Shown: in pieces, positions 6,153 to 31,400 of the stretch | Position numbering within the stretch: the first letter of the stretch is position 1 | Layout: each line of letters starts with the position of its first letter | NCBI GenBank assembly: GCA_963645885.1 | Contig: CAVIUL010000001.1 | Coordinates: forward strand, 22,265-60,643 | Reading direction: 5' to 3' | Source: a bacterium | GTDB taxonomy: Bacteria > Bacillota_I > Bacilli_A > RF39 > UBA660 | Length of the DNA: 38,379 nt | Notes under the pieces: model-generated | Told to the model about the DNA's origin: nothing | Database searches by the model: none | The model's input: the letters and a program-made list of their open reading frames with translations, nothing else | Made by a program: the position numbers and the translations under genes

Positions 6153-7036
6153 TGAAACAAAGTCAAGCTTTAATGTATAATATACCTATTTTTAATATAG
6201 GAGGTATACTTGCTAAAATAGCAAAATCAGCTAAAAACATACAAGGACAAGCTAATTTAGTAGGAAAAACAAAAAATCCAGAATTATTTAATCTGTTAAG
6301 CAAGTTAGCAAAAAGTTAGAAAGGTGGAACAAAACTTACAGAAAAAGAATCTAAAAAGTTAGTAACATTAGTTCAAAACTATAGAAGAAAGAATGTGCAT
6401 TACCAAGCACGAAGAAAAAAGTTTAATGAAGCTTTATCTGAACGAGCAGCTGCAGAACGAGCAGCTGCAGAACGAGCAGCAACTGAAGCTGCAGCAACTG
6501 AAGCTGCAGCAACTGAAGCTGCAGCAACTGAAGCTACTGGAACTACTGCAGCAACTACAGCCGCAGAACGAGCAGCTACTGCAGCACGAGCAGCTACATC
6601 TGCAGCTCAAGGAAGACTTGCTAAAGCTTGGGGAGTTGTTAAAAGACACCCTTGGATTACAGGAGGTGCTCTTTTAGGATTAAGTAATGGTTCTGTTAGA
6701 CAGGGTATTGGAGCAGGATTAAGTTATTGGACAACTCCAGTTAGTCAACGGGATTAGATTGGAACGCAATCTCCAACTGGATCTCAAATGCAAATAAGAT
6801 TAAATGATGGTTCAATTGTACCAGTAACAATGGGAGATGATGGAATTTTAACATTTGGTTCTACAACGGAAACTGAAGGATCAGATCCTACCGCAGACGC
6901 TATTGCTCAAGCTATCGCTGAAGCTAATGGTGCAGCTAGTACTGGTGCAGCTAGTACTCAAGCTCCATCTCTTGGTTCTTTTGCAACCAATGAAGAATTG
7001 AATGATGTCTTTGAAGATGACGCATGGGATCAGTAA
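6152..7036 (+). CDS. Ala/Glu/Thr-repeat protein with a central hydrophobic segment (294 aa), function unknown
   Basis: The ATG at 6152 overlaps the upstream TAA (TAATG). Frame 2 is open to TAA at 7034-7036, with 2 in-frame TAGs (6318, 6755). Track ORFs 6395-6757 and 6788-7036 share this frame. It contains the repeat AAERAAAERAATEAAATEAAATEAAATEA and the TM-like segment HPWITGGALLGLSNG. Confidence 0.75.
6440..6541 (+). repeat. In-frame 15-bp tandem repeats (gaacgagcagctgca x2-3, then actgaagctgcagca x3-4)
   Basis: Direct reading shows units at 6440, 6455, 6470 (12 bp), 6482, 6497, 6512 and 6527. Degenerate related units continue to about 6600. The repeats encode AAER/AATE pentapeptides. Confidence 0.9.
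6929..6958 (+). repeat. Perfect 15-bp direct duplication ggtgcagctagtact x2 (GAAST GAAST)
   Basis: Read directly: copies at 6929-6943 and 6944-6958, in frame within the 6152-7036 CDS. Confidence 0.85.
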
Positions 7037-7614
7037 TTATAAATAATAAAGAATATAAAGTAAAAGAAGCTAAAACTGAAGAAGAAAAACGCAAAGGATT
7101 ACAAGGAGTAGAAGAGCTTCCTGAAAATGAAGGAATGCTCTTTTACTTTGATCCTGATGAGGAAATTACTATGTGGATGGATAAAACTAAAATACCTCTT
7201 GATATTATTTTTATAAATGAAGATTATGAGGTAACTAAAGTTCATCATGGTATTCCTAATGATAAAACCCAAATATCATCTCCTGAAACTGCTTATGTTT
7301 TAGAAGTAAATCAAAATTCAGGTATTAAAGTTGGAGATGAGGTTGATTTTGATGATAATGATAAACCTCCAATTATGAAAGTTTTGGCTCCAGATGGTAG
7401 TACTTAGATGGAATTATGGGGTGGAGAACGTATAGTTAGTAGACGTGAAACCAAAATCCTCATAAAAAAAGCAAAAGCTGCAGAATTAGTAAAAGATACT
7501 CCTAAATATAAAAATAAATGTATTTCATTAGGTAAATATATGTTTAAAGTATTACGAGGTTAGGATAATAGACCTAATGAATATGTAGAAAATAAAAATG
7601 CTAAAACCGAATAA
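7024..7614 (+). CDS. DUF192 (COG1430-like) domain protein with a basic C-terminal tail (196 aa)
   Basis: The ATG at 7024 overlaps the upstream gene by 13 nt. Frame 1 is open to TAATAA at 7612-7617, with 2 in-frame TAGs (7405, 7561). The sequence KRKGLQGVEELPENEGMLFYF...ITMWMDKTKIPLDIIFINEDYEV...AYVLEVNQNSGIKVGDEV matches the DUF192 pattern as I remember it (GLm..l....GmlF, fwM.nt..pLDiiF, yvLE...G...i..Gd.v). Confidence 0.8.
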
Positions 7615-7618
7615 TAAG

Positions 7619-7650
7619 TTTGGATTAATATAAAATATAGGTTATTTTTG
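7619..7650 (+). promoter_or_regulatory. Bacteroides-type promoter: TTTG (-33-like, 7619-7622) and TATTTTTG (-7 TAnnTTTG, 7643-7650)
   Basis: Both consensus elements of the Bacteroides/Bacteroidota primary-sigma promoter are present, separated by 20 nt, in the only sizeable intergenic gap (7618-7683). They lie about 34 nt upstream of the ATG at 7684. No Shine-Dalgarno-like tract is present. Confidence 0.55.
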
Positions 7651-7683
7651 TACATAATATTAACAATTTAATTATATATAATT

Positions 7684-8046
7684 ATGAATATTACTTATAA
7701 AAACGCAGTAAAAAACGTAAAGAAATTTCAACAAGGTGGCCCAATGGGTCCAGAAGGTGCTCCTGCAGAAGGTGCTCCAGAAGGAGGTGAAATGCCAGCA
7801 GAGGGCGCACCTGAAGGTGGTGCTCCAGAAGGTGCTCCAGAAGGCGGTGGTGAGGATCCAATTGCTCAGTTAGTGCAAATCTTCGCACAAGGACTTCAAA
7901 ATCAAGATTGTCAGATGCTTGCACAGGGTGCACAAATGTTTATGGAACTCGCTCAACAAATGCAGGGCGGTGGTGGTCAACCAGCACCAGAAGGTCAGCC
8001 TGTATTTAGAAAGGGTGGTAAACTTGCATACAGAATTAAATATTAA
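7684..8046 (+). CDS. Small acidic PEGA-repeat / Gln-Met-rich protein (120 aa), TAG-free, function unknown
   Basis: This is an intact ATG-to-TAA ORF in the standard code. It is visibly GC-richer than its flanks. All 15 Gln codons are CAA or CAG, and 5 are CAG, which is rare elsewhere in the window. A promoter lies upstream and a terminator downstream. Confidence 0.85.
   Translation: MNITYKNAVKNVKKFQQGGPMGPEGAPAEGAPEGGEMPAEGAPEGGAPEGAPEGGGEDPIAQLVQIFAQGLQNQDCQMLAQGAQMFMELAQQMQGGGGQPAPEGQPVFRKGGKLAYRIKY
7750..7851 (+). repeat. Imperfect in-frame repeats of ccagaaggtgctcc-type units encoding (P/A)EG(A/G) repeats
   Basis: Read directly: PEGAPAEGAPEGGEMPAEGAPEGGAPEGAPEGGG. Confidence 0.7.
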
Positions 8047-8061
8047 TTATTAATACTCATT

Positions 8062-8101
8062 AAGAGGAAGTGGAGATACACAACTCCTCTTCCTCTTTTT
8101 T
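8062..8101 (+). terminator. Rho-independent terminator
   Basis: A 14-bp stem, AAGAGGAAGTGGAG (8062-8075) pairing with CTCCTCTTCCTCTT (8084-8097), has one mismatch. The loop is 8 nt (ATACACAA). The stem runs into a T-tract ending at 8101 and starts 16 nt after the TAA at 8044-8046. Confidence 0.75.
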
Positions 8102-8106
8102 CATAT

Positions 8107-11100
8107 ATGGCAGAAAGTACACAATAGGTAACACCTACTTTATATAGTTTCTACGGGAAACAATATGATTATAATGATTTAGCTAAAGCAGCTGATTCTG
8201 GTTTAAATGATTATCTTATAACTCTTGAAAGAGGTGTAAAAGATTCTGATAAATTTAAAGCTGCTTATGCTGATATGATGTCAGGAATCAAAGATGGAAC
8301 CATTACATTTGGAGATGGACATTTTACTGATTCAAAAGGAAGATATACTAATGCAGATAAAGAAGCTAAAGACTACTATGGTTTGATAGCCAACTATATT
8401 TATGATAATATGGGTAAGTCTAATGTCTATGAGGCACCAATTTCTCCTGAAGAAGCACGAAAAATAAAATGGGATGATAATAGTGTTAAAACTGCATTAA
8501 TGAGAGAAATCTATAACAGTGATACTGCTGGTAATTTACAAGATTTCTTAGAATTAGATGATGCTAAGAATGGAGTAAGAGGAATTACTAATCGTTCTAC
8601 AAGATTAGCTAATGCTTTTCAATCTATTGCTGATAACTGGGATAATACATTCTCTGGTTATTCAGATAATGATAAAAATAGATATAGACAATTATTAGGA
8701 GAAGCTGCAACCGCATTAAGAGATGGTACTATTAATGCAGGAGATTATTTAGCTTTAAGTAGAGCTATTGGAGGTGTAGATTTTAGAAGTATGTTAGCTA
8801 CAGGGTCTCCAACATCTACTGCTACTCCTGATATAAGTTCTTCTACTACTCCTGATATAAGTTCTGCAACTTCTACTCCATCTTCTACATATAAATTAAA
8901 AAGAGCATCTTTAAATGCTGATGGATATAGTGCTACAGATATTAATTATATGACAGGATTAATGTCTAAAGTAAAGAGTACCAAAGGACTTATTAACATT
9001 CTTAGAAATAGTTTTTATAATAGAAATTATAAATTTGCAAGAGACCCTAGAGTTTATGCAATTTTTAAAAGTAATAAAATTAGTAGTAAAGCAGGAATTA
9101 CTGCAACACTTAATGCATTAAATGCAAGAGGTGTTTTGAAACAAGCAGACCCTTCTAATCCTAATTTAATGTATATACCTGGTCTTAGAACAAAACGAGG
9201 TACAGCTTGGGTTTGGGATAAGTCATCAAATCAAATAGCAGAATTGCAAGTAGATAATATTCCTTATTTAAAAGCTAGATTATCTCAAGTAACATCTCAT
9301 AAAAAAGGAGGAGTACTTTATGCTGAAAAAGGAGCAGAAACTCCTTATTGGTATAGTAGTATAAACGATTATGATAAAAGTAAGTATGGATATTCTTGGG
9401 GTAGTACTGCTTATGGAATGGATAAAGATGGCAATTTTATAGATGCATTTGGAAATGCTAATAAAGGATATAATCAAAATCGTTACACTACAGATTCTGG
9501 ATATAGAGATTTTTCAGATGCTGGAAAAAATATAGCATTAGGTATTGAAAATGCACAAAACTACAAAGACCAAACTTCTAAAATTTTATCAGATTATGAT
9601 GCTTATATTAATGCTTCTGATAAAAGTGGATTTAATGAATCTAATAATTTATTTCTTCGTTATACTAAATGGTATGACTCTTAGCAAACAAATTCTGCTA
9701 ATAGATTTTGGAATGGAGATTAGTTAAATTCAAATTGGACTTCTCAAGGTAAAAGCTATTACGGAAATACAACAGGACCTGTTACTGATATTAAAACTCG
9801 AATCAATTAGTTAAGAAATGATTAGATGGTAGGTATCGCACATAATAATTTTAAAGCAGAAGGAACTCGATATTTTTATAAAGATAAAGATGGAAATCAA
9901 CATTGGGTAGATCCTGAAGTAGCAAAAAATTATTAGAAAAAAGAAGGTGATCCTACAAAAACACAAGATGGTTTTACAACTTGGAGTGATTATGAATTAA
10001 TTGGCCCTGCTCAATAGAAAACAGCACAAGAAACTCCTCAAGGAGATGGTACTCAAATTGATAGAACTGACTAGACACAAAAACCTAGCAAATGGAATGA
10101 ACTTTACGGTAAGATTAAAGGTGGTCTTAATAAGCTAGCTCCTTTGGCTTCTGAAGCTGCACGAATGGGATTATCTATACATACTAATAATAAACTTGCA
10201 GACGTTCTTAGATAGCATACTAAATTAGGTTTATATAACCCTTGGGAATATCATACTCCTATTACTGGAGACTTTGGATAGATGTAGTTTAAATTTAATC
10301 AAGCAGCTCAAACTAGAAGTCTAGGTGACAGAATGGCTAGTAGTACTTCTGATGCATCAACTGGTTTTGCTGCATAGTTAGACGCTAATAGACAAGCTAG
10401 TAGTTAGGAAACTGAAGGATATTTAGCTGATAATAAAGAAAGACAAAGAACTACAGAAGTTGCTCAGCAACATGCATAGCAAGCTATTTAGGTAAAAAAT
10501 GATATTGCAAATAAAAATGTTGACAAACAAGTTGATTATGATGAAAAATTAGGAAATATTGAAGCTCAAAGACTCAATGCTAATTGGCAATCCAAAGATA
10601 ACTTTATTGCTAACAATATATCTGCACCATTAAAAGAACAAGCAGCATACGATCTTTCACAAAAGCGTGCTGAAGAGGCTAACAAAAAAGATCAAAAACT
10701 TCAATTTGATTTAGCTCCACTTACAAGACAACAACGATTTCAATCAAATCAATTAGCAAGATATTATACACAAAAAGGTTAGGATTTGTCTCAAGATTAT
10801 AATTCTAAACTTTTAGCTTGGTAGAAAGTCAATGGAGAGGATGCTGATTATACTCAATAGGATTTTTATAAAAATTATATAAATAAGTCAAGAGAATTAG
10901 AAAATCAAATGTATAAAGACCAGTATGATATGTCTGTAGACTAGAGTAATCAAATTAGAACTTTATATGATAATCTTTATAACAATCAATACGCAAGTAA
11001 TTTTACATCAAATCCTTTTGGAAGTAAAACTACCTCAACTAAAGTTCCTCATTATCAAGAAATATTAAGAGGTGCAGGAATGTTGAGAAAAGGAGGTAAA

Positions 11101-11145
11101 ATTAAACCTCATGTACATAGAACATTAAATTTGTTAGGAATATGA
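8107..11145 (+). CDS. Large protein of unknown function (1,012 aa) with a Ser/Thr-rich linker and a Gln-rich, coiled-coil-like C-terminal half; possible virion internal protein
   Basis: The ATG at 8107 lies 5 nt after the terminator T-tract. Frame 1 is open to TGA at 11143-11145, with 19 in-frame TAGs. Track ORF 8275-9684 is in this frame. Confidence 0.8.
8824..8871 (+). repeat. 24-bp tandem duplication (actcctgatataagttct + 6 nt) encoding TPDISS-STT / TPDISS-ATS
   Basis: The 18-bp core is identical at 8824-8841 and 8848-8865. Confidence 0.85.
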
Positions 11146-13046
11146 AAATAATACCAAAATTTGCGGGAGGAGGGAGCACAGGCTCCTTCTTCACCGTTTA
11201 TCAAGCTGTTTAGAATCCACAAATTGGAGGTTATCCTACTAGTACAAAAACATCTAATTCAACAAGTGATTCTGTAACAGTTAAAGATTCCTCAAAAGAT
11301 TCTTCTGATGAAAAAGAGGATACTAAAGGAAAACTTACAGAAAAAGATTTGTTTAATATGATAAAAGATGTAGAAGGATTGCCTAATGAAATGAAATAGA
11401 TTATAACTTCATTAAAAAGAACTATGGAAACATAGAATTTAGTAGGTCAATCTGCACAAGATATATCTACAACCTATTTAAATGCTTTATATAAAATTAA
11501 AACAGCAAAACAAAATAAATCTAAATTTGATGAGGCTATAAAAGATGCTAAAACTAATGGTAGTTTAGGAGAGGTTGCTATAGGAATGGATGGAGAATTA
11601 TATGCTCAAGATGAAAAAGGAAATCCTATTACTATATCATTAAATACATATCTGGCAAATAAAGATAAATATCATTTATTGACTAATTCTAATTTAGCTT
11701 ACTTGCGTCAATATAATCCAAAACTTGCATTTATGCAAAGTGATACTGTTTTTGAAACAATTACAAATGGTGTTGGATACGAATCATTTCAAACTCTTCT
11801 GGATAAAGCTAAATCAAGTCTTGGAAGCACATCTTCGGAAGAAAAAGGAATTGCTGGTCAAGAAGCTTTAGCTGGATTACGAGCATTGTAGGGTAAATCT
11901 GATGCAGAAAAACAAGCTTTGCTTAAAAAAGCAAATGGAGTACTTTCTTATGATACATTTTAGGAATCAAATGTTAATCAAGTACAATCTTTAATAACTT
12001 ATTTGTCTGCTGTTCTTCCTAAACGTGCTAAAGTATGGGCTGCTACTAAATTTGGAACTGACGAAGATAGTGCAACTAAAGCGTTAGTAGGACAATATCT
12101 CATGGGACAATTAAAAACTACTACTAAATATGAAGTTTCTGGAGGTTCTAAAGGTTCAAAAGATTCTAATGGCTCAGGTTCATCTAGCTCTGGAATGGGA
12201 GATGTTGAATATAATACACCGATGAAATTACTAGAAGGATTGGGAGTACAAAATACATTTACACTTAGTCCAGGAACAACTAGAGCAGTTTAGGTTGTGG
12301 CTAACACTTTACCATTAACTGATGCTTAGGGTAAACCTATAGGAGCTAATAAAACATTATCAGAAGCAGTTAGCGGTGAATATTCAGGAATTTTGGATAT
12401 ACAGCATGCAACAATGGGTGGACAAACAATTGATACATCTGCTTTTAATAGTATAATAGTGAGAGATGGAAAAATTAATTCTATTGATTTTCCTTGTATT
12501 GTTAAAGCTGATGGAACAATTTTACCTAATACTAATCCTGAAACTTATAAAGCAAAACAATTAGCAGATAGAGAATTGAAGCGTAGAGGTATAGATGTTA
12601 CTAAACAAGCAGATATTAAGAAATATTATAAAGCAATCAATCTTACTTATTAGAAATATAAATTAGGAGAAGCTTACAATTCAAATGGTGAACCTACAGG
12701 AAATTGGAGACGATTTGGAGTAATTAATGTAGATGCTAATAGTAAAGCTTTAGGTATGGGTGATTTAGAAGATAATCCTTTACTTAAAGAAATTACAGAT
12801 GATGCAACTATTGACAATTTAATTAGTATTACTAAAGATGAAAACTTTAGTAAAAAAGGAATAATAAGTTCATTTACTGGAAACTATGATAGATTTTACA
12901 GAGGAACACTTTGGATTCCTTTAGATGTAAACTATCATGCTGCATCTACAGGCACAAAAACTAAGGGCGAAGATGTATATAATACAGAAGTTGCTCAGCA
13001 AGCGAGAGATGCTCGTGATAATTGGAATAATGGACCCTCAATTTAA
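11142..13046 (+). CDS. Protein of unknown function (634 aa)
   Basis: The ATG at 11142 overlaps the upstream TGA (ATGA). Frame 3 is open to TAA at 13044-13046, with 8 in-frame TAGs. Track ORFs 11586, 12003, 12393 and 12756 are all in frame 3. Confidence 0.8.
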
Positions 13047-13048
13047 TT

Positions 13049-16000
13049 ATGGAAAGAAGAGAACACGATATATTTATGGATATGCTAGCCAATCCTACTG
13101 CATCATTTGATACAATGGTAACAGTAGGATTGAATTCCTCTAACACTTCTCTACAGGATAGATCTGTATATGAAGGGAACAAATATGTGTAGGAATAGTT
13201 TAAAAATTCAGATGGAGAGTTTGATAAGAAAAAATTTGAGCAAGCATATACCATTGCCAAATCATATTACAATAATTTAGCCAATGCTGATTTTAATGAA
13301 TCTATGCAAAAACAAACTGTTTGGCATAGAGATAGTTTATTAGCACCAGAAGGCTAGAGAGAAAAAGGACCTAGATTCCAAGAATTTAATATGTCTAATC
13401 CTATGGAGTAGGTATTTGGCTTTGGAACTTTAGGAAAAATTGAAGAACCTACTAAGTCTTTAGATGAATTAGCTCAATCCCATAAAGTTTTAGCTAATCC
13501 AACTACAGCAGGAGCAAATTTAGAAAATGCTAAGTGGGAAGATGCTCCTAATGATAACTTTTTCGGCAATTTCTTTGATACTCTTGTTATTGCACAATGG
13601 GATTCTGATGGAGAACATATTGACCCAATAACTGGAGAAAAAGTAAAACATGAAAAAGGTGAGCCTAAATTAAATCAAAATGGAGAGTATTATTATGAAA
13701 AACTTGATGGGCGTGATGTTTATGGTCGTAGAGTTTTAAATAAAATGAATGTTTTGACAAAAGATGGTTCATTTATGAATAGGTTTGACTTTTTTGATTC
13801 AGACGATATTGAACAAAAAAGCATTGCAGGAACTACATTTAAAAATTTAGCTTTAGTAGGTTCCATGTTTATTCCTTATGTTGGTCCTTGGATTGCAGGA
13901 TTAAGTGTAGCTACATAGTTAGCAGGCTTAGGTGCTACGTTAGGTAAAATGGCTTTAGGAAGCGATAGTCCTGTATTGAATGAGATTGAAGGATGGTCTA
14001 AATCTGTAAATAGACAAACTGCAAAATCACAATATGCACAAGAGCATACATGGTGTTGGGAGAATTTTATCAATCTCATAGGTGATACTATGGGACAATT
14101 AAAAGAGTAGAGATTTATCTTTGAGAAAATTCCATCTGTATTTAAAGGAGCAAATATGTCTACCAAAGCAGGATAGGCTGAAAAATTAGCATAGCTTGAA
14201 GAAAAATATTCAACTGAAGCTAAAGAAGCTATAGATAAATTATTTAAAACTGGTAAAAATGGAACAAACTTTACTAAAAGTTCAATAGAATTACAAGAGA
14301 TAGCTCCTTTAAAAGCTCAAGCAGAAATGGATTCATTCATTAAAGGATATAATAAACTTGGAGAAGTTCTTAGTAAAGGTTATATGACAGGAATAACTGT
14401 AGCTGATACATATGGTGAAGCAAAACAAGCAGGAGCTTCTGATTTGGATGCTACTTTATTAACTTTAGGTTATGCTGCAGGTGAATTTGCTATACTTAAT
14501 ACAGGATTAGGTGAATGGATTTTACCTGAATTGAGAGCAGATAAATATAAAACACAAGCCATTAAAAACGCATTATTAAAATTAGACGATGAAGCTAAGT
14601 CTGCAATAAATAACGCATCTAGAGAAGTTAAACAAAGTTACGTTAAACGATTGTTTAATATGGGTAAAAGTATTGCTAACGCTGAATATGCTAATGGAAC
14701 AAGAACTTTGAAAGCAACTCTTGCAGCAGGTGTTGGGGAAGGTGTAGAAGAAGTTAGTGAAGAAGTTTTAGCTGACTTTTCTAAAGCTTGTTTTGATACA
14801 GTTAAATGGTTACAAGGTGATAATGTACGATTAAATACATTTGGATACGACTTTAAAACAGGAAAATGGGATGGTAAAGAAGTTCTTGACAGATATGGTA
14901 TGTCTCTTGTAGGAGGTGCAGTAGGTGGTTCGTTAACTAATGTCGGTACTAGTTACAAAACTTTTAAAGAACTTGATTCTATGACATCTGAATAGGCTAT
15001 TCAAGAGTTAGTTTATATGCATAGAAATGGTACTTTAAATAAATTTGAAGAAAGTATTGATAAATCCCAATTAGCTAATCCTGGTAATTCTGCTACTAAT
15101 TTTGAAGTAAAAGATGGAGTAATATTATATGCTCCAGGAACTTAGGAAAATAATCAAGACTTATTTGCTAAACAAGCATTGCATCAATAGGTTAAAATTA
15201 TAAGAGATATTCTTGATGCAAATGGAGCAAATTTATCTGATGATTCTATTTTATAGAAACAAACTGAAATGTTAGGAGATTTACGTTTTAATGCTTTACA
15301 TAAATCAACAACAGCAGGAGGATTTATTAATGAATTTAATAAATTAAGTTCAGATGTTATTAAATTAACAACTCAAATTAATAATCTAGAATCATCTGAT
15401 TTAGATAGCAATAATGACGGAACGGTTACAGATAAAGAAAAAAGACAGAATGAAGTAAGTCAAGACCATAAAGAACAAATTAAAACATTGCAAAAAACTT
15501 TAAATGATACTAAAACTAAATTATAGGATTTAATTGATGGAAAACGATCTTATGAATTTGTATCTGATGCTTTGTTTGAAATGACTACTGATTTAAGTGG
15601 TAGATTTACAGCTGCAAGTTTTCCTTTATATGTAGAAGCTAAATATCATAAAAAATATTCAGATTTAACAGAGAATGAAAAAGCTATATCTTGGGAAGAA
15701 TACGAAAATTGGAAAACTTCTGAAGGAAGAGATAAGATTAGAGATATGGCAGCTATTTATAGGACTATTTCTGAACAAGCTAGTAAAGTTATTAAAAAAC
15801 ATTCTGATGAATATTTAAAAGGAGATACACATATTCGTAATTTTAACAACCTCATCACAAGAATATTTAATACAATTGATGGTAATTCTGAATCTGATTG
15901 GTTAAGTAATGCTCAACGTATTTAGGACTCTAACTTTAATCAAATTGAAGCAAATTTGATTGCTCAATTTGGAACAGATGAGGATAAAAAAGCATTATAG

Positions 16001-19000
16001 GTTTATGTAGATAGAATGAAATCTATTGATCCTACAATGTCTGAAGAAGAAAGAAAACAAGAATAGGCATAGATAGGTCTTGACTATTCGAATAAACAAG
16101 CAGAAATTATTCTTAATAATCTCTCTAAATTTATTCAACCTTTTATTGATAGCGGGACAATTAATACTGAAACAAAAAATCAACTATTAAAAACATTAGA
16201 ATAGCTTAAACAAATATCAATCAATAAGACAAATGAAGCTACGATGTATGATGCTTCTGAAGAAGAGCAAGATTAGTTGGCAGAAAAAACTGTATAGGTT
16301 CAAAATGCTATTGATGAAATATCAAAATTAGGTAATACTTCTTTTGAAAAGAATTTGAATGAATTTTCTATTGCTATAGGTAATGAACCTATTAATATGA
16401 CACAATTACTTGAAAGATTAAATACCTCTTTCAATGATGTGTCTAATAATATCACTAGGTTTAATATGGATGAGCAATTGTATAAAGATTTAGACAATGC
16501 TATTCATACTATTGAAATGTATCAAGCTGCAATAAAAGGAGCTAGAACAGATAATGCAGGAACTGGAAATTATTTCGGATATAATGCTACTTTAAATGAG
16601 ATAGCTAAGAAATCTGAAGGAGATTTTCCTGAACTTGCAGAAATTGATAAGCTTTCTGCAGATGTATTTATTGCAGATATTAATACTAATTTAAGTAAAC
16701 TTTTATTTTTAAAATAGTTATATCAAATAAACCAAGGTCAAAAGATGACCAGATAGGATAGAGTTGCTGAAAGAAAAGATATTTTATTCTATAGAAGAAT
16801 GAAAAGTATTGTTTCTGTTCCTGATGATGATCCACTAAAATCATGGGAAGGATTTCTTGAATTAAAAAATACTATAGAAGCAGCAACCCTTCATGAAAAT
16901 TTTAGAGACTCTGAAATTATTCAAGAAAAAGATAAAGAGGCTTTTGAGAAAGAAAACATACTTATTGAAGATGCTATATATGACTTTTTCTAGAAAAATT
17001 AGGAAAAAATAAAAGATTCCACTAAGTTATCTGAATTTATAAACGGACGTCATTTGAATCTTTATACAGAAGCTAAATAGATTCTGAATGAAGGTACTGA
17101 TGTTATGGATGATAACTCTATGTTATGGTGGATAGCAAGCCGTTGTGCAGTAAAATCTTCAGCATTTCATAATAGATATTCTTAGATAATTAGTGATAAA
17201 ATAGCACCTATTGCTACTCAAGAATTAGCAGTTTATAATAACTATGCAAATATAGTAAATGGTAATGTTTTTACAGCTTTTGCAAAGGCTTTTAGAGAGT
17301 CTATGGTAAAAGATTGGAAAAGTAAATCTGTAGAAGAAAGAAAGAGAATTTTAACAAGTTTAAATAACTCTGAGGCTTTAGCAGATGATAAATTTGTAGA
17401 TTATGCTTTAAACTTTTTACCTGTTCCTAGATTTGCTAATGTAGTATTAACCGAAGGAATTGCAGGCAGTGGTAAAACTTCTAGTGTATTTACATAGACA
17501 GTTACAATGCTTAAAAAGTTTAATCCTGACGTTTTAAAAAATGTTGCGATTGTACATGGAGCCTCTAAATCAAGTGCTGAAGAAATTCAATCATTATTAG
17601 AAATAGAAAATTCTAAAAGCTACGATAGAGCAGGCTGGATGAAAGAAATTTCTAGTCAATGGAAAGAATATTTAATTGATCCAAAAACTAACAAACATCT
17701 AATAGAAAAATCTGCATATACATTTAGTTCTGAAAATGAAATTCGATCAGCATTAAATATTAATCAAACAGACACACCTCCAAGTCTTATTATTATTGAT
17801 GAAATCTCCAAATTCTCTACTTATGATGTAGATTTAATTAATGATTTTGCTAAAAAATATGGAATTACTGTCTTAGTAGCAGGAGATTTTGATCAATCTG
17901 GAGTTGTAGGATAGCATCCTATTGCAGTAAATGGAGAAACATTAAATTGGCTTCCTGAATTACAAAGAACAAACTTTATTAGGTCTCCTAAATTAGGAGT
18001 ATCTATGAGAACTGATAATTCTCTTAAAACACGAAATCAACAAAAGGTTCAAGCTTATATGCAAAATCACACTTCTGAAGATTTAATATAGCTTGAATGG
18101 TTTCAAGACGAAACTGGTTTATATGGAGATAGAGTCATTAGTTATGAATTTAATGACCCTGATGTTAATGTTAACGATTTAAGAAATCAAAAAGGAAAGG
18201 TTGTTGATAGTGTTATAGGACAAGTTGATAAATTAATTTAGACTTTAAAGCCAGGAGAAAAAATAGGTTATATATTTAATGACAAATCATCTCCTATTTA
18301 TCAAAAATTAGCATCTGATGAATATAAAAATTTTATAGATTTAAAAGAAGGTGGATCTGCTCAAGGATTAGAAAGTAGATATTATGTTATTGAAGCTGAT
18401 CCCACAATTGGACTTTCTAGTTCAGATAATATGGGCTAGAAAATGGCTGAAGATAACTATTTAAAAGAAATTTATACTGGAATCACTCGAGCATAGCAGG
18501 GAAGTATTTTAATTATGCCAACAGACATGGGACCTAAAATAGGTACTGTTTAGGTTAAATCTAAAATTAATGAAATTATTAATCCTGCAATAATTAAAAG
18601 TTATTCTATCAAAAGAAAAAATCTTTTAGAAAAAATTACTACTTCTTAGGATATTGAATATGTTCCTCGAGACAAAGAGGCATTAGATACCAAAAAACCT
18701 TCTGGAGAATCTAAAACTGGTTTAGATGAAGGAGTTACTTTACCTCCTCTACCTGATAATGAAGATACTACAAAAAAATCAGCTACAGTAAAACCTGATA
18801 GTACACCTGATGCAATTACACCTCCAGAAACAGTAGATTTTGAAACTCTTCCTTCTGGAGATTAGGAAGAATTATCAAAAATTCAAGAAAATGTAATTAA
18901 GAATCCTAAAACCGAAGAACCCTGGGATACTAATGATACTAAATCTTTAATTCCTTATGGATAGATTGTTTCGGTACAAGGTGAATATGGTGTTATAAAA

Positions 19001-22000
19001 GGAATTCAAACGAAATCTGATGGAAATCATAAATATTTAATTGAGACAAAAGAAGGTGAAAAGGAAATAAACTATAAAGATATAACTCAACTTATATCTA
19101 ATGCTAAAATAGAATCACCTGTAGTTTTAGATCACTAGGAAATGGTTAATAGATATGGAGAAATTGCAAATGTTGAATCCATAACTGTTAATCATAATGG
19201 TATTGAACTTACACTACCTTTATGTCAAATACCTTTCAAATATAAGAAAGAAACTGGAACTAATAATATGATCAACTATTTGCATAGAAATATTGTAGTA
19301 GTTAAAATTGGTAATGTTCACATTCCTTTCTATATGAGTACTGGTAGAGGTGGTAAAGAAAATGTACAACCTGGATTATGGTATCCTTTCTTTGGAATAA
19401 AAGATGGATGGTTAAATAAAGGTACTCAAGAAGATATTAATAATTTTTATGGAAGTCCTATTCTTAAAATTGTATCGGAACAATTAAATAATGTATTAGG
19501 AACAGGATATACTGATGATATAAAAGGTCCTTTAACATTTGAAGAAAATGTTGATTCTATTCAAATTTAGTATATAAATTAGGATTTAAATCCAACTGCT
19601 AATGGACACTCTGATACACTTTAGAAATTTAATGATAACGTAAAATAGACTATTGAAGCTATTGATAAATCTTTATCTGAAATTATTCCTGACATATCAG
19701 GAACTGAAGCTCCAAAATTGAGTTATGAAGACGATACTGCTCCTATTAATTTCAACAGCGATACTCTTGATGATAAAACTTATCAAGATATGGTTGATAA
19801 AGAAAATGAACCAACAGCTTTACCTGGATCTCAAGCAGTAAATGAGGGGTCTAAAATTGCAATTACTATGTTATTACATTCATTTAATACTTTTGAAACA
19901 GGTGTTTTATGGGATGAAGAAGGAAATCCAGTTCCTGTTGGAGATTAGACATGGGCAGATGCACGTATTGATAGTGTTAATGGATTATTAAAATTAGATA
20001 GGTTTAAAGGAAAGAAAAAAGAATATTATTTAAATGCATTAGGTTTACTAAGAAGTCATTTATTTAATACTGAAGATAAAGCCGAATTAGTTAAAAAACT
20101 AGAAAAAGTTTTGGGTATAGACGGCATTTATCTTACTTTTGCTTTAAAGAGTTCACCTAGACCTGGAGAAGGTAATAAATCCAAAGGAAAAGAATTTGTA
20201 GAAGAGTAGCCAAGTCGTTTTAGTAAAGGTATTAGTGAGACTACAGAATTTAATGGTTCATCTGATTCAAGATCTCATGAATGGCATCCTAAATCTCTTG
20301 TTGCAATTATTGGCACAAATGCTGATGGTGATGTTTTAGAACTTCCACTTTTAGCAACATCTTCACCATTTACTTTATTACAATTAGAAAATGATTAGAA
20401 ACAAAAAGTATTCCCTGATGTTTTAAGTACATTTGAAAGTTTAAAGAGTAATGGAATGGGATATTATGATATTGCTAATAAAATAATATCCAAATTTGAA
20501 AATGTTAACGAATACAAAGATTTAATAGACTTATTTAAATTATTTGTACGTACAGACAGAAATATAGAATATTTAAGAGATCCTAACTGGACTATTGCTC
20601 GTAATTTAAATTTACAAGGTGCAATTTTTGCTAAAGATAGAGGTAAACTTATGGGAGTTCCTGGATTTGATTATGATGCAGATAGTACTCCTGAATCTGA
20701 ATGGAGCACATTAGATTCATTATATGCAGATCCTCAAAGATATGTAACAGAATAGATTTTTTCTTCTGTAAATGATACAACTACTACTGTAAACGGTAAT
20801 GAAATTCAATTCTCTAAACCTGGACATGCATTTGTATTAGCGTCTTATGATAGAAGTTTAAGTACTGACGAGGAAGTTGTAGAATACTTTACCAAACAAT
20901 GTAAAGATCCTAGTTTACCTAAGAAAGTTACTCAAGTATATATTGTTCCACCAAAAGCATCTTTAGAAGAATATATTGAAAATTTACGCAAAATTCTTGA
21001 TAAAAATGAACATGGAGCATTGCCTATTGGTCAATTCTTTACTTCATATAAGTTACTATAGGTTCTTTTAACAAATGATTCATTTAAAGAAATATTAAAT
21101 AAAAGAGTTCCAGGTTTATTACAAAAAACTCAAGATGCAATAAATTATATAAAAGAAGCTTTTGATGCAGCATAGCAAGCTACTTCTCTTAGTGAAAAAG
21201 CAAAATTAATGGGAGAAGTTAGGCAAAGATTATTTGAAGCTCAAGATTGGTCTAGTATAATTGGAGGAACAGCTAAACCTGTTAAGTTGGCTGGATTATT
21301 AGATGGAGTAATATTAAATTTCATCTATACAAAAAGTTCACTTCAATCATTAATTACTGGTGATTATGGAGTTTCTTTTGAATTTGATCAAGATAATTTT
21401 AATCTATTTAAAGGTATTTTAACACAAGCAGGTATTGATGGAGTTAGACATAATATAAAGATTCCAAAGAATGCACCTCGTGTAGGACCTTTTGTAGTAG
21501 TTTCAACTAATTATTCTCTAAATGGAAAACCATTTAGAGTTCATAATAAATTAGATTCATATACTTTTTCAGGAGATATGTCTAGTCTTATTCATAGTTA
21601 TGTTGATGCTTTGCGTCCATCTAAGCCAGATAAAGATGGAACAATACATTATGCAGGAGCTGATACATATAGATATTTAAAAGGAAAATCTAATATAAAT
21701 AATTCTGTTAAATCTAAAGATGATATTGATAGAGATAATCTTGAAAAAACATTCAAAAAGAAAGGATTAGATATTAATCAAATCTTAACAAACGCAGGAT
21801 TAATAGACATATATTAGAATCAACCAGTAGAAGATTCTATGAATAGAATTATAAATACAATTAACTAGACTATTCCTAATAGAATTGCATTCAAAGTTGG
21901 AGGAGATTTAATTATAAGTGATCCTGTAGAAGAACTTGGTAATTAGACTTTCTTAATTGACTCAAACGACAATCCTATTACAGATTTAGAACCATTATTT

Positions 22001-22480
22001 GATAATTTTGGAGTAGCTAATTTTAAAATAAGAGTTAATGATGTTGAATATTTATCAAGTTATAATAAATCTACTGGGACTATTAGAATGACACCTCCTG
22101 GAGAATATCATGAAAATGCAGCAACTGCAGTTAAATTATCTATTACAGAACAAAACTTTAACGAGTATATTGCTGATGGTAAAGAAGCTCTTTTTGAATG
22201 GATTGATGAAAACGGATAGTATTACGATTGGGAGATAGAAGACCTTTTTAACTCAACATCACTTGAGGAAATGCAAGAAGTTATTAGTCAAATGACTAAA
22301 TTAGACGATGATGCATTCTTAGATTTAGAAAAATATACAGAAAGTGATGAGTTTAAACAACTTGATGATAGAAAGAAATAGATTGTAAAAGAAATAAACG
22401 AATTAGAACGAGCTATTCGAGATAGAAATTATGATGAAAATCAAGAAACTTGTAAAATTGATATAACTTTTAAAGTATGA
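13049..22480 (+). CDS. Giant protein (3,143 aa) with N-terminal hydrophobic/TM-like segments and an internal SF1 (RecD/Dda/Pif1-like) helicase domain
   Basis: The ATG at 13049 lies 2 nt after the upstream TAA. Frame 2 is open for 9.4 kb to TGA at 22478-22480. I checked every gap between track ORFs and found 52 in-frame TAGs and no TAA or TGA. The hydrophobic run is LALVGSMFIPYVGPWIAGLSVATQLAGLGATLG (about 13850-13950). Confidence 0.85.
17456..18493 (+). other. SF1 helicase core motifs inside the 3,143-aa protein
   Basis: Motifs read in order: Walker A GIAGSGKT (17456-17479); Walker B/motif II LIIIDEIS; motif III VLVAGDFDQSG; motif V-like GGSAQGLESRYYVI; motif VI YTGITRA (TGITRA at 18476-18493). 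They are collinear across 5 TAG-separated ORF fragments. Confidence 0.7.
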
Positions 22481-25400: not shown

Positions 25401-28400
25401 TAATAATCAACTTCTATTATACAGATACCGTAAAAAAGAAGATTTTTGGATTGAAAAAAAGTCAGAAGTATTGAAAAGTTTGCTTTCTAGTAAGACTAAT
25501 TTCAATACAAGTAATACTGTATAGGCTGAATGTAATTATTTACGAGATTGGAATAGAAAACAGGTATCTTCTGGAAACCCTAATTGGATTAATTCTTCAG
25601 GAAACTTAATTCTCGCTAAAATTATTATTAATCAAGATACACCAGATGAGCGTATAGTTGATATAACTTCACAAAAAGACTTTGTAAAATTAGGAATTTC
25701 AAATTATCATGAGTTTATTACAAGTCACGCAGCTGATATTCAATTAAATCCTTTAATTGAAAAATATAATGCACTTGATTATTTATTTACTCAAGAGTTT
25801 ATGAATACCACAGTAGGCTCTTTTGTAGCCCATCCTAATAAAACAGGGTCACAAGATGTTATTGAACAAGAAGCTGGACATTTCCAAGCTCAGCATAAGC
25901 GTAATGTATCTATGACTGCAGCAATGCATGAATTTTAGCTTAATTTGTTATCAGGAATTCCCGAAACTTATAATTTAGCTGTAATTGATGATATTCATGA
26001 TGAACAAGGCACAATTACAGGGTTAATAAATGGAATCAAACCTTTTGATGGTGCTACATTTGTAAATCCCTTTGTTGTTCTTCTCGAAAATTATTCTTTA
26101 TGTGGAGCTAAAGCTGGTATTAGTAAAAAATAGTTTGTTCATTTTAAAAACGAAAAAACTGGTACAGGTGGTATCATTAAAACTGCAGGATTTGGATTAA
26201 CTAATGATTGGATTAGAAATTCTCCGTTTTTACAAAAAATGATGAGAAAAATGACAAACCATGTTTGGCTTAATGAAGATGGATCTTCTGCACATGTAGA
26301 TATTACCAAAGATTATTCAGGAAACAAAATAGAATATAAAAATATTTATTATAAATAGAATGGAAAGTATTATAGAATTACCGATATAACTTATAATGGA
26401 AATAATACATATACTTATAATTTATAGGAAGTTGATGCAAAAGGTAATTTTATACAATATATGAAACCGTCTCAAGGTAGAAGATTTGTTTCAGAATAGA
26501 TTGATACTAATTATAAATTATGGAATTTCTTTGGTGGTGCGTGGTCTATGGAATTAAAAAATGGAAAACTAGTTCCGTCTAATACATCTGTAGAAAACGT
26601 AGTTACTGCAATGAACAATACTAAATCTGAAGAAACTGTATTAAACAAAACACCTAAAACTCAATCAGATTTATGGCAGCCTCTTAAAATGGTTGATGTT
26701 CATTATCTTGCAACAGCGGGTGCTGTAAAACAAGGTGCTGCTAATATTAATTCATCAAGCAAATATACAGATGAAGAAGATTATGATATTTAGAAAATTC
26801 ATATGTATCAAGCAGGAATCCAGCTTGATAAAGAACATCATGCTGATGAAGCAGAACTTTCTTTAATGACTCAGGTTATATCTGCTTGTGCCGCAAAAGG
26901 ATATACATTTGAAGCCGCAGCAACACTTTATGATGCTTTAGCAAAAGCAACTAGATCTAAAACCTCAGATCATTTAAAAGCTGTAGAAAATTTATTTAAC
27001 GCAGATACTCCTGAAAATAAAGCAGCTCTTAGAGAGGTTTTAGTAAAATCTATCGTAAAAGTATTATCTACAAGTAATAGTAATAATTTTGCTGTAAAAT
27101 TGTCAAAAGAATTAGAGCAACAAGCAAAAAATGGAAAAGAAATAAAATATTCTGAACAATTATTGCCACTTTCTGATAATAATATTCACGCAAAAGTTCT
27201 AAGTGCTATAACTTCATATTTATCAAAAACTGGTATTAAACAAAAAATTCCAGGTGTATTATCAGTGCTTACACCTTCTTATAATATAAATAAGATATAT
27301 GCTGGTAAAAAGTATGAAGCTTATGAAAATCCAGATGAAGAACTAGAACAAATACAAACAAAATAGGTACCTGTTTATGATAGCAGTTTTAAATATCGTA
27401 AAGGATCTAATAGTTTCAGAGGTTTAACTTTAAATTTTGTTGAACCTAATAGTTTAATTTCTGAAATAGATGGATAGCCCGTAGCTGCTAGAAATAATGG
27501 AGATGGAATTGTTTCTCTAGATGAAGCTTTACTTAAATAGAAATTTGAAGATAGAGCTTGGAAATACTCTAGAAATTCAAGAGCTCTTGATTAGGATTTT
27601 GAAACTTATGAAGATTGGCTTAACTTTGTATTACTTCATGAATCAATGCATGATGAATATAAAAAAGAGGAAGGAGAATCTTAGTTTGATTATGAGTCTC
27701 GCGTTAATGACGAAGCATTAAAACGTCTAAATAGTTCTATTAACAATATTGAACTTGGTAGAGAATATTATATTACTGAAAATGTTCAAATTGATCGTGA
27801 GATGATGGATGAAGCTGGAAATATTATAACAGTTTCTGAAATACAAGCAATAACTGGTAAACCTAGATTAATAAGAACTCCTCTTGAATATTATCAATTA
27901 AAATAGGATATTGCTACAGGAAAAGTTTCAAAAGTTGTTGAATGTGTAAAAAACGGTAGAGACCTTGCAGGTTTTAATGTACGATTCAAAACTGATAAAG
28001 GATATTTTTAGTTATGGGATTTAGATTCTTCTCACTGTTTATTTAATTTGAATGAAATATCTGAAGGTCTTAAAAAAGGGAAATTAACTCAAGAAGAAGC
28101 AATTGAGGAGCTTCGAAAAACATTCTAGAGATTCTATCCAAGATTTAATGAGTTAGGAATAAATATAACTTTTGATAATTTTCCAAATTTATTTAAACAA
28201 TTAAAAAGATATTCACATAAAAAATTACAACAAGATTTAGCTAATTTATCAAAAGAAGAGCCTAATGTTTTAGAATAGTTTTAGAAATTAGTTAAATCTA
28301 AGCAAGATACTCCAGAATGGTATTCTCGATTTGCATCTTGGATAAATGTTAAACTTGGATTAAGAAATGGTGAATACATACAATTGGGAAATGGAACTAA

Positions 28401-31400
28401 AGTAAAAGTTACTAGGGATAATTATAATCAAGTGGGAGCTTATGTATTATAGTTATTCAAAGATATGTCAAAAGTTAGAATTAATGGAGAACTTCATAAA
28501 ATTGATAAAGAATCTATTAAAACATAGCCTTATGAAGTAATAATGCCTAAAACTTTTGCTACAGCTTTCGGATTAAATGAATTTGATTCATTAGAAGAAA
28601 TTGCAAAAGATCCAGAATTCTTCTTAAAACAATATATTAAAAATCAAGCTTCTAAAGTAGCTTAGAATTAGTATTCTGTTGAATTTAAAAGGTCTACAGG
28701 ATAGCATATATATGTACTAAACAAATCTCAAGTACCTGGTTCAGGATTACATAAATTAGAAGGAGTTTTAACTGAAGTTGAAGATGGAGTTACTACAAGA
28801 TTAGATTCAATGAATCAACCTATGTATGAACTTTCTCCTGATTCTGAAATTTACATAGATGATTAGGGAAATGAAGTAATTGTAAGTGATGATATTGAAT
28901 TTTATACCAATTCATTATTTTATGATTCTATAAAAATTTCAGAGAATTTAAGAAATAATTCATAGGTATTAAGATCCCTTCCTGAAATATTTAGAAATTC
29001 TTCAAACAAAACAGCTAATGCGTTTGGGAAATTTTTAAGGTCTTATGGAGATTCTAATATAATTATGGGAAGTGATGATTGGAATGATATAGACCAAAAT
29101 CACCCTATAGTAAAATTAATGCATGAAAAACATTCTTCTTTCTTAAGAGCATTAGATATTGTTGCTGCTCGTATTCCTGCACAATCTATGCAATCATACA
29201 TGCCTATGAAAGTTGTAGCTTTTGATAACCCAAATATTAATACTGCATATGTATCTACATATCAAATTTTACTTCAAGGTTCCGACTATGATATAGATGC
29301 AGTTTCTTTAGCTACTTTTGACATAGACTCTAATGGAATGTATTAGCTTTGGTCTCCATATGCTAATATTTCAGATATTGAAAAATTACATGCTTCAGAA
29401 CTACTACCAATTCCAACAGGTTTAGAAACAGAAATTAAGAGTACAAACGATATAGCAGAAGCAATTAAGATTTTTGATGAATATCAAGATTTAATATCTA
29501 TTACTCCTAGACAAACTTACAATAAAGAGTCTAAACTTCCAGAAATTGATCCAAATAAAGTAAATGTAGATTTAAATTTGGATACAGCTGAACAAATAAA
29601 GATGTTAGGTGATTTATTAAATGAATAGTTATTGTCAATAGATCCTGTGTATGCTCCGCAATTTATTAAAAAATTTAATAAATTAGGAGGATTTTAGGTA
29701 TCTAATATAGAACAAATTAATGACATTTTATCTCAATTAAAATCAATCATAGATAAACATAATTTTTATTTTGATAAAGTTTCTGAGAAGAAACTCAATC
29801 ATATCATTAATAATAGAACTATACTTTCTATGTATAATAGTATTAATAATCCTGTTAATTTAACTTAGGCTCATATGTCAGTGGATAATACAACAGGCCC
29901 ATTAAAAGATGTTGCTGAAAATGGATCTCCTGAAATTATATATGAATCAAAACATAGAACTCCTGGAAATTTTGTTAATAAATGTGAAAGTATTAATGAA
30001 AACCAAGTTGGTAAAACAGGTATTGCTATTTGTGCTACTGGATTAAAAGGATTTTTTGCATTAACTCAATATAATAACTATTTATTAAACAAAGGAACTT
30101 CAGAAGAATAGAACAAACTTCTATTTAATGTATCAATAGGTAATAATATATATAGAACTTTAGCAAATATAAGAGCTTTAGATCCCAATACCATTACTAA
30201 TAACACAGTGTTAAAATGTTTAGCTCAAACAGATAATGATGAAGATGCTGCACTGGTTTTATCTGCATTACTATCATTAGCTACTGATAATGCCAAAGAA
30301 TTAGCTCTTTCTAAATTAAATGCAGGAACTAAAACATTAGGTATGTATGTTTATGGAATAGCTATAGGTATGGACTTTAAGGATATTGCCAGACTCCTTA
30401 TGTCAAAAACAGGTAAAACTATAGTAGATATTTCTGAAAGTGATGTATTTGATCAAACAGACGGATATATTACTATAAAATCCGCTTTTGGATATTTCGA
30501 ATAGTTACCTAATAAATATTTAAATAAATATAATATTAGAAAAAATCCAAATGGAACTTCAATAAAATCCCCATTAGAATTTTTTGAAGATTAGATAAGA
30601 AAATTACCTGATGATTTTTATTTTGAAGATGATGGTCGAGAAATGCCATTAAATGTAGTTCTAAGTAATTTTGCTAAAAGAAATTGGGATTTATCGGATA
30701 AATTATAGATATTAGAATCATTAAGAAATAGATACAATACATCTGCTTATGGATCAGAAGTTTATGAGCAATTAATAGACTTTTTAGAAGATTATGTTAT
30801 TGGATCTTTTGAAGTTAATGAAGACTATGAAACATATCAATAGTTAAAAACATTAGCTGAAGGAGCAGATGAAATGAAGACATTAGGTCAAATATTAGGT
30901 TTAAATGGAGGAATTGCTACTGACTATGAAGGATTAACTAAACAAATAGATAGAATTGAAGAAGTTATTTATAAACAGTCTCATGATTTAGAGGATATTA
31001 TAGATTTATCTAAATTTGTTTTTGATTCTGAATATCGTCAGGAATGTATTGAAAAATACGAGACATTTAAACATACATTTAATATTCTTGACTGTTTAGC
31101 TAAAGTTCCACATTTTTTTGAATATGTAAAATAGCTTGCAGTTGCTCAAGAAGAGATAAAACAATCCTATAAATATAGAAGTGTTAAAAGTTTAGCTCGC
31201 AATGTAAGTGATGTAATTGGGTGGAGTAACAAAGGAAAAATTTCTAAAGGATTACAAAATTATATAGGTGACAAAATCAGAAATGACTGGATGCTTGATA
31301 GTGAAATAATAATGGATATGCCTTCTGGAATTAAAGCATTTGACAGAAATGGTGATAGTGATACTTTAACTGAAAGTAAACCTATAAGATTAGGAACTGA

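Follow-up and report, generated by a model that had tools for sequence, protein, structure and literature searches.

The window analyzed here is a 38,379-nucleotide (nt) stretch of contig CAVIUL010000001.1 (assembly GCA_963645885.1, positions 22,265 to 60,643 of the forward strand), and it carries a block of giant phage genes of the crAss-like type, all on the + strand. The gene of interest, open reading frame (ORF) F, spans 3,143 codons, codes for a protein with a predicted superfamily 1B (SF1B) helicase domain in its interior, and is directly followed by ORF G, which codes for a putative virion RNA polymerase (RNAP) (Table 1). ORF F starts with an ATG 2 nt past an upstream TAA and contains 52 in-frame TAG codons, with no TAA or TGA ahead of its terminal TGA (22478 to 22480). 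It is a real gene only with TAG read as Gln, and under the standard code the longest ORF inside its interval is only 222 amino acids (aa). With TAG read through, the + strand is organized into nine abutting or overlapping giant ORFs spanning ~37 kb, each with 0.6 to 1.9 TAG per 100 codons, with none on the - strand. Gln is the most likely reading of TAG in the window, because it is enriched 3.7-fold at the TAG-aligned positions of standard-code homologues and no other residue is enriched; ARAGORN identifies no suppressor tRNA gene in the window.

The helicase core of ORF F contains GIAGSGKT (aa 1470), IIIDEIS (aa 1581), VAGDFDQ (aa 1610), GGSAQGLESRYYVI (aa 1768), and TGITRA (aa 1810). Pfam AAA_30, which is the Dda/RecD/TraA-type 1A domain, matches the whole protein at aa 1465 to 1622 (E = 3e-6, 27.5 bits, with a gathering cutoff of 27 bits) and the isolated domain at E = 1.8e-7 (31.6 bits), and AAA_19 and UvrD_C_2 are weaker matches, the latter at motif VI. 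Among 15 family members, AAA_30 matches 14 and Viral_helicase1 matches 10. An AlphaFold2 model of the helicase of P0052, the closest standard-code homologue (~25% identity to ORF F), was built from a 24-sequence family alignment and has two tandem RecA-like domains in an SF1B/Upf1-like fold (predicted local distance difference test [pLDDT] 85.2, predicted template-modeling score [pTM] 0.87). The top Foldseek matches of this model in the PDB are T4 Dda, UPF1, Dna2, nsp13, RecD, and RecD2, and the top matches are SF1B/Upf1-like helicases only. The search gives 178 matches at E ≤ 1e-3, with E values down to 1.5e-9 for Dda, RecD, UPF1, and Dna2; Sen1 and IGHMBP2 are also matched. The Q-motif Gln, the Walker A Gly, Lys, and Thr/Ser, the Walker B Asp-Glu, the motif III Gly and Gln, the arginines of motifs IV and VI, and the motif V QGxE are invariant in all 143 full-length members, which have identities down to ~21%, and all 121 additional long representatives that were taken from an exhaustive search have the helicase domain with a strict Walker A. 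The fold and its catalytic residues are under strong purifying selection. The initial annotation had proposed an SF1 helicase with five motifs in canonical order, and all five lie at the places it quoted; the proposal is upheld by motifs, profile, predicted fold, and conservation, with the P-loop SF1 fold recovered and the Walker A and B residues kept in the homologues.

Judged by its sequence, ORF F carries an SF1B helicase of the Dda/RecD-Pif1-like branch that is predicted to be catalytically intact. Its polarity is presumably 5' to 3', and both this polarity and a DNA substrate are suggested by the structural neighbors only. T4 Dda, RecD/RecD2, and Pif1 share the motif set and the two RecA-like domains and are the best structural and profile matches, but they are stand-alone enzymes or complex subunits of 400 to 750 aa that act in replication and repair, whereas the core in ORF F is embedded at aa ~1385 to 1850 of 3,143 aa and is only ~12% identical to them. 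Sequence searches of the PDB with the helicase region and with a whole-family profile give nothing significant, blastn of the helicase region against GenBank phages gives no match, tblastn of the region finds only two unannotated metagenome-assembled genomes (MAGs), and PHROGs has no match to ORF F or its neighbors.

Conservation within ORF F peaks in the N-terminal ~900 residues, where it exceeds that of the helicase and where many residues are invariant, such as those of EGxEExSEE and M..GG..GG. An exhaustive HMMER search with the profile of this module recovers 642 clusters (50% identity) at E ≤ 1e-30, a number that rises to 1,433 at E ≤ 1e-3. The module invariably begins at residue ~1 of a giant protein, and its pairing with the helicase is obligate in the family. 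A word-index search returned 828 matches, almost all of them proteins of 2.8 to 3.4 kaa with precomputed AAA_30, AAA_19, or Viral_helicase1 assignments, and individual clusters at 90% identity contain as many as 5,534 sequences, none informatively named. The N-terminal module has no match in Pfam, PHROGs, or PDB sequence searches, and its model gives nothing credible in Foldseek against the PDB, matches to ABC-transporter helices (E ≥ 0.35) being dismissed as meaningless. Membrane-like segments and a long hydrophobic stretch had been described for this part of the protein, but there is only a single, moderately hydrophobic stretch of ~45 aa, with a Kyte-Doolittle 19-residue maximum of 1.56 in the window and a family median of 1.48; the usual transmembrane threshold of 1.6 is reached at this place in only 18 of 141 homologues. 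At the other end, the C-terminal ~1,000 to 1,200 residues are conserved only within the recoded sub-clade (27 to 55% BLAST identity to loci L003, L002, and L006) and have no Pfam or PDB match. A DYDAD sequence at aa 2541 was considered as a second catalytic site and rejected as a chance match, as it is conserved in no relative.

The genes around ORF F are organized in the order muzzle, X, DUF192, small ORF, a gene for ~1,000 to 1,460 aa, a gene for ~620 aa, helicase giant, and RNAP giant. This muzzle-to-RNAP order is seen in the window, in phage Lera (PV725988), in 38 IMG/VR loci, and in distant branches (ENA assemblies of 180 to 191 kb), and no inspected locus departs from it, whichever of three genetic codes is used; the window corresponds to Lera gene for gene, with the PD-(D/E)XK giant last. 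The window and loci L002 to L018 and L037 read TAG as Gln, the standard code is used in L001, in L019 to L039 other than L037, and in most database proteins of the family, and Lera reads TGA as Trp. A single phage lineage thus uses three genetic codes for the same muzzle-to-RNAP block. Relatives of the window lie on contigs of 150 to 190 kb. The gene order and the large genomes place the window, in all likelihood, in the Zeta crAss-like lineage (proposed Echekviridae); TerL lies outside the window.

The helicase domain has been flagged before in annotations. The corresponding gene of Lera, ORF 191 (8,346 nt), is a "RecD-like protein" in a 2025 supplementary table, in which the PD-(D/E)XK giant is tabulated as "exonuclease V" and the Lera orthologues of ORF G as DNA-dependent RNA polymerase; "RecD" appears nowhere in the main text of the Lera paper. 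The Lera gene has the same place between the muzzle and RNAP genes and a similar size; it differs in reading TGA as Trp where the window reads TAG as Gln, and the comparison with it covers position, size, and annotation. Two BFVD/UniProt MAG entries, A0A8S5RTY8 ("RecD-like protein [Siphoviridae sp. gcode 4]") and A0A8S5TKT5 ("Helicase [Podoviridae sp. ctz6O13]"), match the P0052 model in Foldseek (E = 2e-32 and 2e-24; TM-scores 0.77 and 0.66, respectively). The window protein is almost certainly in the same orthologous group as the Lera and UniProt "RecD-like" entries. The Lera and UniProt records are bare annotations of the same domain, and, together with the GenBank record of cr50_1 (see below), they flag the helicase and do not analyze it; we found no paper that analyzes or discusses the domain, with the qualification that Fig. 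3 of Yutin 2021 was not checkable for a helicase box. What the usual Crassvirales gene lists call "SF1 helicase" is another gene, located in the replication module. "RecD-like" names the type of domain and not membership in a RecBCD complex, because no RecB- or RecC-like partner is found in Pfam scans of ORFs A, B, D, E, H, and I and, for ORF G, of its equivalent in L001, where the sole nuclease match in the scanned ORFs is the PD-(D/E)XK domain of ORF I.

Table 1. Genes of the window and features of ORF F (coordinates in nt of the window)
Feature	Position	Strand	Evidence or remark
ORF A, crassvirus muzzle protein	1-3675	+	Pfam crAss_MUZ, E = 1.2e-22; also crAss_MUZ_C
ORF B, Gly-rich, directly after the muzzle gene	3675-6152	+	Interrupted by an intein at ~4563-5303
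ORF C, Ala/Glu/Thr low-complexity repeats (AAERAA / EAAAT)	6152-7036		No profile match
DUF192 ORF	~7025-7614		PF02643, E = 3e-24; two in-frame TAG in the translated frame
120-aa ORF, largely Gly/Pro/Glu "GAPEG" repeats	7684-8046		
ORFs D (1,012 aa) and E (634 aa), cargo-sized, just upstream of ORF F	8107-13046	+	Position conserved
ORF F, giant of 3,143 aa, 52 TAG most likely read as Gln, stop TGA	13049-22480	+	Family hidden Markov model (HMM), E = 2.9e-269
N-terminal family-defining module, aa 1-916, mostly alpha-helical	13049-15796	+	HMM, E = 1.2e-188
Hydrophobic Gly/Pro-rich stretch, aa 262-306, transmembrane-borderline	13832-13966	+	Only conserved one
Middle helical region, aa ~1080-1418, running into the helicase	16286-17302	+	Family HMM domain, E = 7e-35
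Predicted SF1B helicase core, aa ~1385-1850	17201-18598	+	Pfam, AlphaFold2 model of a homologue, Foldseek, conservation
Q-motif	17207-17224	+	
Walker A	17456-17479	+	
Walker B	17789-17809	+	
Motif III	17876-17896	+	
PKLxxSxRxxN	17987-18019	+	
Motif V	18350-18391	+	
Motif VI	18473-18502	+	
Pro/Thr/Asp/Glu/Lys-rich low-complexity linker, aa ~1868-1962	18650-18934	+	Sequence; variable and gappy in the family
C-terminal region, aa ~2043-3038	19175-22162	+	Conserved only in the TAG-recoded sub-clade
ORF G, virion-RNAP-like giant of 3,310 aa	22477-32409	+	DYDID at nt 29284-29298
ORF H, 352 aa, HELMH motif, possible zincin	32397-33455	+	Motif only; no Pfam match
ORF I, 1,600-aa giant with a PD-(D/E)XK nuclease domain at nt 33947-34471	33455-38257	+	Pfam PDDEXK_1, E = 2.7e-12

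The genes upstream of ORF F have features of their own. The frame of ORF A is open from the start of the window, with its first ATG at 478. The ORF B intein (Pfam Intein_splicing, E = 5.5e-15, aa 297 to 543) contains the LAGLIDADG-like motif LLAGIFDVNGD, and the ORF B orthologues in relatives are 455 to 517 aa and thus without the insert. The DUF192 gene lies inside the virion block, a position that is kept in Lera, L041, and L042, and relatives have a small ORF of 95 to 107 aa at the place of the GAPEG-repeat ORF. In L042, which represents a distant branch, the block has an SLT lytic-transglycosylase gene (561 to 1223) as a neighbor of DUF192, upstream of the gene for the helicase giant, which would fit a module for envelope penetration. 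GC content is 0.34 to 0.36 at 5000 to 8000 and 0.26 to 0.30 elsewhere in the window, the rise coinciding with the Gly/Ala-rich ORFs B and C and the repeat ORF. Profile searches (Pfam and PHROGs) with ORFs D and E give no match. Downstream of ORF F, HExxH motifs are present in ORF G (HESMH, aa 1721, nt 27637 to 27651) and ORF H (HELMH, aa 195, nt 32979 to 32993); they may correspond to the zincin-like protease reported for proteins of the crass RNAP block, and Pfam gives them no support.

ORF G is coupled to ORF F by an ATGA overlap at 22477 to 22480, in which the stop of one gene and the start of the other are shared. The DYDID motif of ORF G is at aa 2270, and the region around it aligns with the DFDID region of cr50_1 (MT774375.1, L043; Cohcovirus hiberniae, Suoliviridae) with 38.6% identity (E = 0.002). 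Homology of the cr50_1 polyprotein to ΦcrAss001 gp50 is clear (E = 3e-25), and ORF G itself has weak, collinear matches to gp50. ORF G is not recognized by PHROGs or the PDB, nor is its standard-code equivalent in L001 by Pfam, as would be expected from the extreme divergence reported for these polymerases. In L001 (MT835470.1) an insertion that encodes a LAGLIDADG endonuclease (~30725 to 31762) interrupts the RNAP gene precisely at the DxDxD motif, which fits the published description of Zeta phages; the RNAP gene of the window is uninterrupted.

By its position, ORF F would be a late virion gene. It is not the replicative helicase, as Zeta phages encode DnaB and SNF2 helicases in a replication block of their own (PMC7886860; Lera table). 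Recoding is thought to mark late genes (PMC12386605), and the Lera orthologue is flagged as carrying suppressed TGA stops (Lera paper table); the heavy stop-codon recoding of ORF F thus suggests late expression. In ΦcrAss001, gp45, gp46, gp47, gp49, and gp50 of the equivalent block are all present in virions by mass spectrometry (PMC10172136). ORF I is tied to one of these proven virion proteins because its nuclease domain resembles gp47 (aa 1780 to 1841, E = 5e-4). The initial annotation had placed the giant in a recoded virion operon rather than a replication module, next to and translationally coupled with a virion RNAP gene, and the crassvirus muzzle gene upstream, the ATGA overlap, and the alignments of the DYDID region and of gp50 bear this out.

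A second link between an SF1B helicase and the RNAP is found in cr50_1, where a 4,774-aa protein (QOR58058.1, encoded at 6237 to 20561) lies after the muzzle gene and two cargo-sized genes. It is composed of a gp47-like zincin (HEAFH), a gp50-like RNAP (DFDID at aa 3154), and a C-terminal, Dda-like SF1B helicase (AAA_30, E = 5e-21; a PIF1 match; Walker A GYAGTGKS), and its GenBank record gives the name "DNA helicase" to the entire protein; according to BFVD, cr118_1 may be similar. As in the window, a post-muzzle giant contains an SF1B helicase physically linked to virion-RNAP function, pointing to a function shared by helicase and RNAP. The arrangement differs, the cr50_1 helicase being C-terminal and on the same polypeptide as the zincin and RNAP modules, and the two helicases are only generically related: hhalign aligns them over domain 1A only (90% probability, E = 1.6e-6). 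The cr50_1 helicase appears to have been recruited independently or to go back to a very deep split, and SF1B modules seem to have entered the crass cargo/RNAP block more than once.

The biochemistry of a related polymerase suggests what such a helicase might do. In vitro, gp66, the virion RNAP of φ14:2, leaves double-stranded M13 DNA untranscribed and works only weakly on the native genome of the phage, whereas it is very active on single-stranded or denatured DNA; early transcripts share no upstream motif, and QDE-1, a eukaryotic relative of this RNAP, needs the QDE-3 helicase and RPA (bioRxiv 10.1101/2020.03.07.982082).

The best reading of ORF F, which we hold tentatively and at somewhat below an even chance, is that it is a helicase or translocase delivered together with the virion RNAP and serving it. 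ORF F would be produced late, loaded into the virion as cargo, and ejected into the cell together with the RNAP, and its SF1B helicase would act on the entering phage DNA, melting or translocating along the duplex to provide a single-stranded template; the same motor could help to reel in the 150- to 190-kb genome, and the N-terminal ~900 residues, including the hydrophobic stretch, may function in packaging, ejection, or anchoring. Such co-delivery, already suggested in the initial annotation, is plausible and is favored because of the conserved synteny and coupling with the RNAP gene, the late recoding, the cr50_1 fusion, and the dependence of the φ14:2 enzyme on single-stranded DNA. Partial parallels are known. 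Coliphage N4 delivers a giant RNAP together with ejection proteins, and this RNAP needs a non-duplex template, which is melted through host gyrase and SSB and not by a packaged helicase. TraI is an AAA_30-type SF1B helicase that is transported together with DNA, unlike ORF F in a type IV secretion context and with a relaxase domain.

Several observations weigh against co-delivery. ORF F resembles ΦcrAss001 gp45, gp46, gp47, gp49, and gp50 in being a giant late protein encoded after the muzzle gene; those proteins are packaged according to mass spectrometry and are proposed to be extruded partly unfolded. ORF F has no detectable homology to them: blastp and hmmsearch against gp44 to gp50 and hhalign against gp45, gp47, and gp49 give nothing significant, so orthology with gp45, gp47, or gp49 was rejected and it is the position of ORF F that speaks for it as cargo. 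A motif scan of the ΦcrAss001 cargo proteins finds no P-loop, which argues that a helicase is not a general requirement of the crass RNAP, and by the same motif criterion most catalogue crassviruses would manage without a packaged one. Zeta phages are uncultured, and ORF F is a candidate for a cargo role whose packaging, ejection, and cooperation with the RNAP are inferred from context. A protein of ~355 kDa with a folded helicase would need to unfold to pass the tail; the N-terminal model, a bundle of long helices with a small beta region, has a pLDDT of 62; the weakly hydrophobic stretch falls below the usual transmembrane threshold; and, with RNA-acting helicases (UPF1, Sen1, and nsp13) among the structural neighbors, the substrate of ORF F may be other than DNA.

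The strongest competitor, an unlikely one in our view, is that ORF F is an injected antidefense or host-takeover "polyvalent" effector, whose helicase pairs with the ORF I nuclease in a RecBCD-, AddAB-, or Dna2-like manner and would degrade host DNA, process or protect incoming ends, or displace restriction and defense proteins rather than act in transcription. The PDDEXK_1 domain of ORF I is encoded in the same operon, the labels chosen by the Lera annotators name just such a pair, and the Foldseek matches include RecD within RecBCD and Dna2; ΦcrAss001 gp47, however, has a PD-(D/E)XK domain without a helicase partner, indicating that this nuclease needs no such helicase, a RecB- or RecC-like partner is lacking in the scans described above, and the cr50_1 helicase has an RNAP polyprotein as its fusion partner instead of a protein with a nuclease alone. 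A helicase module in a giant injected protein is an established arrangement, as with P1 DarB, which combines a methyltransferase with a superfamily 2 (SF2) helicase and is packaged in the P1 head, and rare UvrD-like modules occur in plasmid giants (PMC5512222). DarB and other polyvalent proteins (Iyer et al. 2017) are like ORF F in being very large, in having a helicase module, and in coming from late genes, with delivery alongside the DNA proposed or shown; DarB-type helicases, however, are of the SWI2/SNF2 (SF2) class and are fused to a methyltransferase, whereas ORF F has an SF1B helicase and no second recognizable enzymatic domain. Compared with polyvalent proteins in general, ORF F has the late/packaging context, but its one recognizable catalytic domain, next to ~2,600 residues without assignment, is not typical of them, and "crAss," "SF1," and "RecD" do not occur in the text of the survey by Iyer et al. 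2017.

Less probable still is that ORF F is a late helicase that stays in the producing cell, where it would act in late recombination-dependent replication, process concatemers, or assist assembly or packaging, and that it lies in the block only incidentally. Dda-type helicases normally act in replication and recombination, and the missing homology to proven cargo proteins also fits an unpackaged enzyme. Against this stand the strict gene order at every inspected locus under three genetic codes, the translational coupling to the RNAP gene, and the constant fusion to a conserved, non-enzymatic module of ~900 aa and a tail of ~1,200 aa. The separate replication module has its own helicases, and the cr50_1 helicase is fused to proteins whose ΦcrAss001 homologues are virion components. 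That ORF F is delivered with the RNAP and acts on RNA or RNA:DNA hybrids, in transcript release or termination like Sen1/UPF1 or poxvirus NPH-I, is very unlikely: UPF1, Sen1, IGHMBP2, and nsp13 are structural neighbors, Viral_helicase1 is matched in many members, an RNAP copying single-stranded DNA would leave long hybrids, and poxvirus virions carry helicase-like transcription factors, but the best Pfam and fold matches (AAA_30, Dda, and RecD) are DNA helicases, the cr50_1 module is clearly Dda-like, and no RNA-binding accessory domain is recognizable.

What is new here, beyond the existing labels, is threefold: in the very large and abundant family of post-muzzle giants of Zeta phages, an SF1B helicase is recognized as an obligatory component with conserved catalytic residues; another crassvirus family fuses an SF1B helicase to the RNAP; and a link can be drawn to the need of the enzyme for a single-stranded template. 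The family comprises at least 642 clusters at 50% identity, with thousands of metagenomic copies in single 90% clusters, and the ~2,600 residues beyond the helicase of this highly conserved and abundant gut-phage protein are without a recognized fold or function. A crass virion RNAP is almost inactive on double-stranded DNA in vitro and has no recognizable early promoters, yet has to start on a duplex genome, and the adjoining or fused helicase is an obvious candidate for the activity that this calls for. If co-delivery with the RNAP is extended to crass phages more broadly, a step that we consider doubtful, the SF1B helicase would be an integral, virion-delivered subunit of their early transcription machine, recruited at least twice (in Zeta and in Cohcovirus-type Suoliviridae), making single-stranded DNA for a QDE-1-like RNAP, accounting for promoterless early transcription, and perhaps also serving as an import motor. 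Should ORF F serve the RNAP in this way, it would be, as far as we found, the first packaged SF1B helicase of a phage that serves a packaged polymerase, with parallels in poxvirus cores and in the QDE-1/QDE-3 pair.

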